A stretch of 32,000 bases of DNA from Candidatus Saccharimonadota bacterium (GTDB taxonomy: Bacteria > Bacteroidota > Bacteroidia > Cytophagales > Amoebophilaceae), in contig NZ_OZ239769.1 in assembly GCF_965196625.1 (NCBI RefSeq), positions 210,001 through 242,000 on the forward strand, in the 5' to 3' direction. The notes below the pieces were generated by a model. The model saw only the letters and a program-made list of their open reading frames with translations. It did no database searches and was not told the origin of the DNA. A program made the translations under genes and the position numbers. Shown here piece after piece: positions 25,517-26,729 of the stretch (the stretch's first letter is position 1; each line of letters opens with the position of its first letter).

Positions 25517-26602
25517 AAGGCGATGCGAATAGGTACACCTTTTTGCTCATATTCTGCAAATTTATAACCTGGCTTACGGGTAGCTCTGTCATCTAACTGC
25601 ACACGCACACCCTGTGCGATCAATAGCGCTTTACAACTAGATAATTGCGCTACTACTGCGGCGCGTTCTGCCTCTGTTTTATAAATCGGCACCATCACTA
25701 CCTATATGGGCGCAATTTTAGGCGGCAATACCAAGCCATCATCATCCGAATGGATCATAGTCAAAGCACCCATCAGCCGGGTAGTAATGCCCCAGGAAGT
25801 ACCCCATACATAATCCCGTATGCCGGATTGATTGGTAAAAGTTACCTCAAAGGCTTTGGCAAATCGTTGGCCTAGGTAGTGTGCGGTACCCACTTGCAGC
25901 GCCTTTCCATCTTGCATAAGCGCCTCAATGGTATAGGTGGTTTCTGCACCGGCAAAACGCTCATTTAGGGTTTTAGTGCCTTTTATTAAAGGTATCGCCA
26001 TATAGTCTGTAACGATCCGTTCATACAAATGCAACATTTGTAAAGCCTCTGCTTCAGCCTCTGCCTGGGTAGCATGGGCGGTATGGCCCTCTTGCCATAA
26101 AAACTCTGTGGTACGCAAAAAAAGCCTTGTCCGCATTTCCCAACGGACTACGTTGCACCACTGATTGAGTAAAATAGGCAGATCTCTGTAGGATTGAATC
26201 CAATTTTTATAGGTACTCCATATAACCGTTTCTGAGGTAGGCCGCACAATCAGCTCTTCCTCTAACTTAGCAGCAGGGTCGACTACCACACTACGGCCAT
26301 CTTCGGCCATCTTTAAACGATAATGGGTCACAACGGCACATTCTTTAGCAAAACCTTCCACATGGCCCTGCCTCTTTGCTAAAGTAAGATTTTGGAATGA
26401 GTAAAGGAAAATAGCCATTTACATGGCCGGTTTCTTTAAAGGCAGCATCAAAAATAGCTTGTAGCCTTTCCCAAATGGCATAGCCATAAGGTTTAATCAC
26501 CATACAGCCCCGAACAGAAGCATTTTCAGCCAGACCTGCACGTACGACCAATTCATTATACCAAGCGGAAAAATTGGATGCTCTTGTAGGTAAAGGGGTC
26601 AT
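25517..26602 (-). pseudogene. proS: proS pseudogene (3'-truncated, nonsense codon, frameshift)
   Basis: A CAG->TAG change at 25702-25704 and an extra C in 26366-26368 disrupt the frame. About 129 C-terminal codons are missing. The ORF track shows three pieces: 25468..25698, 25702..26418 and 26345..26671. Confidence 0.9.
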
Positions 26603-26729
26603 ATCTAAAGAGAAAAATAATAAAAGAAAAACAAGCCTATAAGCCGGGTTCTGTAGTGCACGATCGCGCACTGCTTGTCATTTATCTGGCGCTATAATCA
26701 CTTATAGCCTCTAGCGGCCCACCCACATG
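25517..26729 (-). repeat. Segmental duplication of 13205..14416 (5' three-quarters of proS (lacking ~129 C-terminal codons) + 3' 99 nt of rnpB)
   Basis: Collinear, roughly 99% identical by eye (about 10 differences noticed). Confidence 0.9.

Follow-up and report, generated by a model that had tools for sequence, protein, structure and literature searches.

The DNA analysed here is a 32,000-nt stretch of contig NZ_OZ239769.1 (positions 210,001-242,000, forward strand; hereafter the window), in which most of proS, the gene for prolyl-tRNA synthetase (ProRS), and the 3' tail of rnpB, the gene for the RNA of ribonuclease P (RNase P), are found twice in the same orientation. The two copies of this segment, termed repeat R, lie at 13205-14416 (locus A) and 25517-26729 (locus B). 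Self-BLAST of the window aligned them over 1213 columns at 99.18% identity, with 9 mismatches and 1 gap (E = 0), as anticipated in the original prediction, which had described the two segments as direct copies of ~99% identity. The edges of the repeat are sharp, because in an alignment that included 55-nt flanks on each side identity stops at 13204/13205, 14416/14417, 25516/25517, and 26729/26730. Coordinates of all features are given in Table 1.

At locus A, proS is intact, and the class II core, HGTP anticodon-binding, and ProRS-C_1 domains expected of a three-domain ProRS are all present in its product. This protein is 100% identical to database protein P0001 and shares 86-90% identity with the closest Cardinium ProRS matches (P0002-P0011). 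What is left of rnpB beside it is a 3' remnant that measures 106 nt rather than the 99 nt first proposed; a forced global alignment of this remnant to RF00010 reached 50.9 bits, under the 100-bit gathering score of the model, and it therefore does not qualify as a class A RNase P RNA. The remnant is fused to a truncated dnaK, as had been claimed. The open reading frame (ORF) of the dnaK fragment crosses 14416/14417, with its last ~16 codons in rnpB-derived sequence, and the matches listed in a protein database search with this fragment were all partial proteins of other taxa, the best at 82%.

At locus B, rnpB is complete and belongs to class A. It is the sole match above the gathering score in an Rfam scan of the whole window, and its score compares with 281-284 bits for the orthologues in relatives. 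The adjoining proS bears the lesions that had been read from it, namely a nonsense codon (Q300*, CAG to TAG at 25702-25704), a 1-nt insertion, and the loss of 129 C-terminal codons beyond the deletion junction at 25516/25517. Only the core domain could be detected, in a 238-aa ORF, so this copy does not qualify as a three-domain ProRS. Every protein of the source contig in the ProS 90% cluster derives from locus A (490 and 513 aa) or from locus B (108 and 75 aa), and no further ProS from this contig was found among the best 120 ProS homologues listed. A second intact proS, which would have spoken against the original prediction, was thus not found among these database proteins, nor was a second intact rnpB found within the window.

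Extent, ancestry, and polarity of the duplication

A second pair of direct copies, repeat L, was found by self-BLAST at 7334-7924 and 24925-25516 (98.99% identity), the latter lying immediately left of copy B of repeat R. Repeats L and R are 5,280 nt apart at locus A, where ftsK, tsaD, a gene for an FtsX/LolCE-like permease, and the 3' end of proS lie between them, and they abut at locus B. Divergence is equal in the two pairs, with differences in 5 of 593 columns of repeat L (0.84%) and 10 of 1213 columns of repeat R (0.82%). This equality, together with the abutment in B, fits a single duplication event, and the spacing suggests that locus B is a copy of the whole 7.08-kb block 7334-14416 from which 7925-13204 (5.28 kb, including ftsK from 7925 onward) has been lost. 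The duplicated unit would then be at least 7.08 kb long, not the 1.2 kb originally put forward. No microhomology was seen at 14416/14417 or at the deletion junction (7924/7925 and 13204/13205 compared with 25516/25517). Within repeat L, the two copies of a SUF-type iron-sulfur (Fe-S) assembly gene show no differences in 303 coding nt and encode identical proteins; their flanks do differ. The second gene may be expressed, in which case the genome would have two working copies.

The closest relatives found, represented by five contigs (L082-L086; 90% amino acid identity in ProS and about 81-86% nucleotide identity over aligned segments), are unduplicated and align without break across lepB, rnpB, proS, and ftsX, plus tsaD where the contig extends that far. 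The genes lepB, rnpB, proS, ftsX, and tsaD follow one another on one strand in L083; in L086, lipA on the opposite strand is followed by a gene for an ABC-F ATPase, lepB, rnpB, proS, and ftsX, with lipA and the ABC-F gene placed as in the window. The other three contigs (L082, L084, and L085) agree with this single uninterrupted order. By nucleotide alignment, L083 69-2795 corresponds to window positions 28325-27120 and 27015-25517, and L083 1585-5478 corresponds to 14417-11564 and 11443-10438. The overlap of these two alignments, 1585-2795, is exactly the repeat, and it matches both 14417-13205 and 26729-25517. Outer flanks of both copies are thus contiguous with single-copy sequence in L082-L086, as expected of a direct segmental duplication, and the window without 14417-26729 has the gene order of the relatives. 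The duplication is genuine, and the earlier view that neither segment arose simply by insertion of the other is supported.

The comparison of synteny that the original prediction had proposed, aimed at an ancestral rnpB-proS-lepB order, also recovered single, uninterrupted lepB-rnpB-proS, followed by ftsX, in three more distant relatives, Cardinium sp. TP (L001), cSfur (L081), and an Amoebophilaceae metagenome-assembled genome (MAG; L002). In TP and cSfur this block is inverted relative to tsaD and the ABC-F gene when compared with the window and the closest relatives; this in-situ inversion separates two Cardinium lineages. At the level of gene order, the window also shares with Cardinium sp. 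TP the succession of a gene for a sodium:solute symporter domain joined to a C-terminal HD_4 domain (SSF-HD) and then the Fe-S assembly gene. A recent ancestor is shown to have had single copies of these genes, arranged as SSF-HD, Fe-S assembly gene, and ftsK, followed on the other strand by tsaD, the ftsX-like gene, proS, rnpB, lepB, and ABC-F. By the same gene orders, lepB is the ancestral upstream neighbour of rnpB, and ABC-F is an ancestral neighbour of lepB. The adjacent repeat L, an IS481-family insertion sequence (IS) 1 nt from copy B, and the uninterrupted order in the relatives are new beyond the original prediction.

The 10 differences in repeat R were polarised against the three nearest relatives. 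At least 7 of them represent changes in B, 2-3 are ambiguous, and no clear case of a change in A was seen, so copy B is the one that is decaying. The B-derived changes are the frameshift, Q300*, K46R, I281T, one synonymous site, and both sites in the rnpB tail. More distant outgroups (TP, cSfur, and the Amoebophilaceae MAG) had given mixed polarity; it was the K46 and rnpB assignments that changed with the nearest relatives. Both rnpB-tail changes fall on the 3' strand of one hairpin (U-G to U-A, and a terminal G-U to G-G), and the rnpB score is unaffected by them.

Origin of the two loci and of the sequence between them

The best account of these observations, and one of good likelihood, is a recent segmental duplication in direct orientation that had its right boundary within rnpB, after which the redundant copy B underwent deletion and decay. 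Judging from the topology, at least the 7.08-kb block would have been duplicated directly, with its right end so placed that it took in just the 3'-terminal 106 nt of rnpB. The left copy, A, would have ended in a non-functional rnpB stub from birth, and the right copy, B, would have continued into the rest of rnpB and lepB, with all protein genes of the block doubled. Copy B would then have lost 5.28 kb, comprising the greater part of ftsK, all of tsaD and of the ftsX-like gene, and 129 codons at the 3' end of proS, after which its proS remnant would have gained the frameshift and the nonsense codon while copy A was kept under purifying selection. A duplication end inside rnpB by itself leaves one gene complete and the other truncated, so that rnpB need not have decayed at all. 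The earlier proposal of duplication followed by reciprocal decay accordingly stands for the duplication and for the decay of proS; for rnpB, truncation at birth is the simplest course. Because the IS481 element ends 1 nt from copy B, the left edge of B may be secondary, that is, the end of an IS-mediated deletion and not the original boundary, and the original duplication was possibly longer on the left. With the only intact proS seen at A and the only intact rnpB of the window at B, both loci would be retained by selection. The sequence between them could then be removed only through a crossover in the last ~360 nt of the repeat, past 14053/26366 and between the B frameshift and the rnpB end.

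Some observations weigh against this account. The copies are not strictly tandem, in the sense of head-to-tail copies with one novel junction, because 10,508 nt (spacer J) lie between them; these 10.5 kb call for extra events, which is awkward if all of them came later than a duplication whose age corresponds to ~0.8% divergence. Both rnpB-tail differences are derived in B, the functional copy, which decay of the A stub does not predict, although the numbers are small. Finally, nucleotide homology to relatives upstream of the Fe-S assembly gene begins only at 7392, so that support for the left junction of A (7333/7334) as ancestral is confined to gene order, SSF-HD and then the Fe-S gene, which is shared with TP.

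The same final structure is predicted by a larger duplication that included all of rnpB, and perhaps lepB, and was followed by true reciprocal decay, with the 5' part of rnpB at A removed later, when the dnaK fragment arrived, and B losing proS independently. Spacer J does record many deletions and insertions at this place, and as the left edge of B is visibly secondary and IS-associated, the right edge of A could be so too. Such a history requires at least one event more than a boundary inside rnpB, however, and nothing else in the window is ~99% identical to the sequence beyond 26729, which leaves no trace of a longer duplication. It is considered unlikely.

Spacer J contains, in order, the dnaK fragment, a split MutS-family gene, an IS256-family element, a tlc fragment, an SSF-HD fragment, a 195-aa ORF, a split folC, another SSF-HD fragment, and the IS481 element. 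The MutS-family gene is probably a frameshifted pseudogene, and the split folC is probably a pseudogene as well. The two SSF-HD fragments share 91 and 86% identity with positions 2710-3485 and 1052-1580, respectively, of SSF-HD1; they stand in the wrong order for one single gene, and the second is cut by the IS481 element. At its right end (18783-19167), the IS256-family element matches part of the cEper1 plasmid NC_018606.1 at 89.8% identity. The other transposase scored 272.9 bits against NF033577 (cut-off, 224 bits) and so belongs to the IS481 family; its element has 26-nt terminal inverted repeats at 23735-23760 and 24898-24923 and matches, from end to end, an element of the Cardinium plasmid CP101108.1 at 88.6% identity, and no clear target-site duplication was seen around it. 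The tlc fragment, the two IS transposases, and the many broken genes of the window fit an IS-rich intracellular symbiont of the Bacteroidota, and the window is assigned to the chromosome of a Cardinium endosymbiont (Amoebophilaceae, Bacteroidota).

The plasmid-like IS elements bear on a second reading, a Campbell-type integration in which a circle of ~12.3 kb (equal to 14417-26729), carrying an old 5' part of proS and the rnpB tail, entered the chromosome by a crossover in the 1.2-kb homology. A repeat, an insert, and a second repeat between ancestral outer flanks are the topology that a single crossover produces; the IS481 element resembles one on a Cardinium plasmid, and plasmids of Cardinium are reported to have homologues of chromosomal genes and to recombine with the chromosome (PMC10117132). 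In searches against Pfam and NCBIfam, however, no replication, partition, or integrase genes were found in 14417-25516, which holds just gene fragments and the two IS transposases, so the insert does not have the makings of an integrated plasmid, and the matches of spacer J to the plasmid collection were confined to the IS parts. Moreover, as all of the proS defects lie in B, the crossover would be confined to the last ~260 nt of the repeat, and the circle would need an earlier duplication to acquire both chromosomal pieces. Integration of this kind is regarded as improbable.

That deletion of 14417-26729 restores a perfectly intact ancestral locus would also suit an assembly artefact, in which reads of a second molecule sharing the 1.2 kb (a strain variant, a plasmid, or symbiont DNA in the host genome) were threaded into the chromosome. 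The 10 copy-specific differences make collapse or confusion by the assembler less likely, and the dnaK junction goes with the intact copy, the 5' part of rnpB with the defective one, which is the reverse of what threading of a defective molecule would give. The length of the source contig, 1,158,289 bp, suggests a near-complete chromosome from long reads, and the window has many further paralogous fragments like these, both old and recent. A 24-mer across the junction (14405-14428) was not found in JGI metagenome contigs, a search that had no positive control for the presence of the organism there. An artefact is the least probable of the explanations weighed here, and the duplication ending inside rnpB is retained.

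Table 1. Positions of the genes, repeats, and mobile elements discussed in the text, and of sites in relatives that resemble the lepB-rnpB spacer
Feature	Position	Strand	Description
Repeat L, copy A	7334-7924	+	Upstream region, SUF-type Fe-S assembly gene 7433-7735 (PF01883, TIGR02945), first 132 nt of ftsK
ftsK, intact, 808 aa	7793-10219	+	FtsK alpha, motor, and gamma domains; 84% amino acid identity to Cardinium sp. TP
tsaD, intact	10435-11439	-	PF00814; colinear with relatives; no counterpart in copy B
FtsX/MacB-type (LolC/E-like) permease	11565-12896	-	PF12704, PF02687; TIGR02212 below cut-off; no counterpart in copy B
proS, intact, 490 aa	12817-14289	-	PF00587, PF03129, and PF09180 in one uninterrupted ORF
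Repeat R, copy A	13205-14416		proS codons 1-361, 21-nt spacer, rnpB 3' tail
rnpB 3' remnant, 106 nt, non-functional	14311-14416	-	Corresponds to 26624-26729 of the intact gene
dnaK N-terminal fragment, 306-aa ORF	14369-15289	-	HSP70 profile positions 1-286 of 599
Spacer J	14417-24924		10,508 nt of unrelated sequence between copies A and B
MutS-family gene, split in two overlapping ORFs	15465-16418 and 16406-17572	-	Domains III and V; no curated family reached
IS256-family element	~17833-19164		Transposase 17867-19081 (NF033543, 428 bits); imperfect 37-nt terminal inverted repeats
tlc (nucleotide transporter) fragment	19470-20318		Part of spacer J
SSF-HD fragments	20310-21094 and 23209-23734		From further SSF-HD paralogues
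ORF, 195 aa	21233-21820		No family match; just upstream of folC
folC, split in two ORFs	21851-22279 and 22294-23130		Profile positions 1-123 and 133-399; low-GC stretch (~32%)
IS481-family insertion sequence	23735-24923	-	Transposase 23774-24862
Repeat L, copy B	24925-25516	+	Intact second Fe-S assembly gene 25024-25326; frameshifted ftsK 5' stub (1-nt deletion)
Repeat R, copy B	25517-26729		proS pseudogene and 3' tail of the complete rnpB
proS pseudogene	25517-26602	-	K46R, +1 frameshift 26366-26369, I281T, Q300*, cut after codon 361
rnpB, complete, RNase P RNA class A	26624-27013	-	Rfam RF00010, 279.4 bits, model positions 1-367 of 367
lepB (signal peptidase I)	27120-28226	-	PF10502; adjacent to rnpB also in L001, L002, L081, and L083-L086
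ABC-F ATPase	28378-29988	-	Neighbour of lepB in closest relative contig (L086 gene order)
Sites resembling the lepB-rnpB spacer, in relatives	L001 509-588 and 12763-12862; L081 12763-12861; L082 1-86; L083 5490-5542		

Left of repeat L, the window contains two tandem SSF-HD paralogues of ~1190 aa (21-3605 and 3745-7299). These are ~70% identical along most of their length but share a tract of ~680 nt (2462-3143 versus 6153-6834) that is ~100% identical, in runs of 423 and 258 bases. The tract looks like the product of recent gene conversion, which implies that homologous recombination appears to be active in this genome, a point in favour of the duplication account. The permease span in Table 1 is that of the longest ORF; its counterparts in relatives encode 407-413 aa, and the true start probably lies downstream. 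Between lepB and rnpB lies a spacer of ~104 nt (27016-27119) that is missing in most relatives, where the gap is 6-8 nt, and that matches intergenic sites at 74-83% identity in Cardinium sp. TP, cSfur, and one closer relative. It appears from these matches to be a small dispersed repeat, and a 109-nt stretch over it folded no better than shuffled sequence (z = 0.01). In cSfur (CP022339.1; L081 20312-20462), a group II intron domain (RF00029, 46.7 bits) was matched downstream of lipA, beside a Transposase_20 gene; nothing equivalent was seen in the window.

Expression of proS at locus A

As had been pointed out, native sequence upstream of the locus A proS is limited to 127 nt (14290-14416). 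In all relatives examined, proS has the orientation of rnpB and begins ~20-25 nt past its 3' end, so that its transcript there probably includes lepB and rnpB or starts within rnpB. At locus A, all genes from 19081 down to 10435 share the minus strand, on which a search from 14864 to the start of proS gave no terminator-like site; read-through into proS from the dnaK fragment or from beyond it is therefore possible on geometric grounds. No Bacteroidota-type TAnnTTTG motif was found upstream of rnpB or of the locus A proS, in the window or in the Cardinium relatives. The single match to this motif lies in the dnaK coding sequence and has the wrong -33 spacing. Sigma-70-like sites in the native and the new upstream regions are rarer than in shuffled sequence, and no promoter motif stands out.

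A further-reaching proposal is that the duplication rewired an essential operon, so that the sole working proS, severed from this setting, would be transcribed from a promoter within the 106-nt rnpB tail or through read-through out of the dnaK (heat-shock) remnant, and that the division of the two essential genes across the repeat would trap 11 kb of junk in a shrinking genome. This is offered tentatively and is rather doubtful. The locus can in any case serve as a natural experiment on the position of the proS promoter relative to rnpB in the Amoebophilaceae.

The two loci provide a clean and datable case (~0.8% divergence) of duplication, IS activity, and deletion reshaping an endosymbiont chromosome, in which selection on single-copy essential genes decides which pieces survive. 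They also have a practical side, since annotation pipelines may call the extra proS, ftsK, and dnaK fragments as genes; products of 513, 108, 75, and 306 aa from the source contig are present in the database.

Comparison with known systems

Direct repeats flank inserted DNA with insertion sequences here, as in the target-site duplication of a transposon. The repeat is 1.2 kb long, however, and was originally at least 7 kb, as against 2-15 bp for target-site duplications, and one side only of the insert ends in an IS terminus. The likeness to Campbell integration lies in the direct repeat of homology on each side of the insert and in the unchanged chromosomal flanks, whereas the insert differs in being without replicon or integrase functions.

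In reciprocal gene loss and in duplication-degeneration-complementation (the models of Force and Lynch), each of two loci keeps a different essential function and both are consequently retained. Each locus of the window likewise keeps a different essential function. What is partitioned here is two different genes of one duplicated block and not subfunctions of a single gene, and rnpB at locus A probably began as an incomplete copy and did not degenerate; no sign of sub- or neofunctionalisation was found at loci A and B.

The events at these loci are ordinary endosymbiont genome erosion, a new instance of a known process with no new mechanism or system. Segmental or tandem duplication followed by pseudogenisation has reportedly occurred in Cardinium cBtQ1. 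The same course has been described for Cardinium sp. DF, a facultative endosymbiont with an IS-rich genome, and duplication with decay is to be expected in an IS-rich endosymbiont (PMC10117132). The window resembles such cases in its direct multi-gene repeats, in the erosion of one copy by deletion, frameshift, and nonsense mutation, in the insertion sequences at the edges, and in that function stays with the intact copy. It differs from them in that the duplicated block ends inside an essential RNA gene, which would make the two loci mutually indispensable, and in that 10.5 kb of unrelated fragments lie in the joint between the copies.

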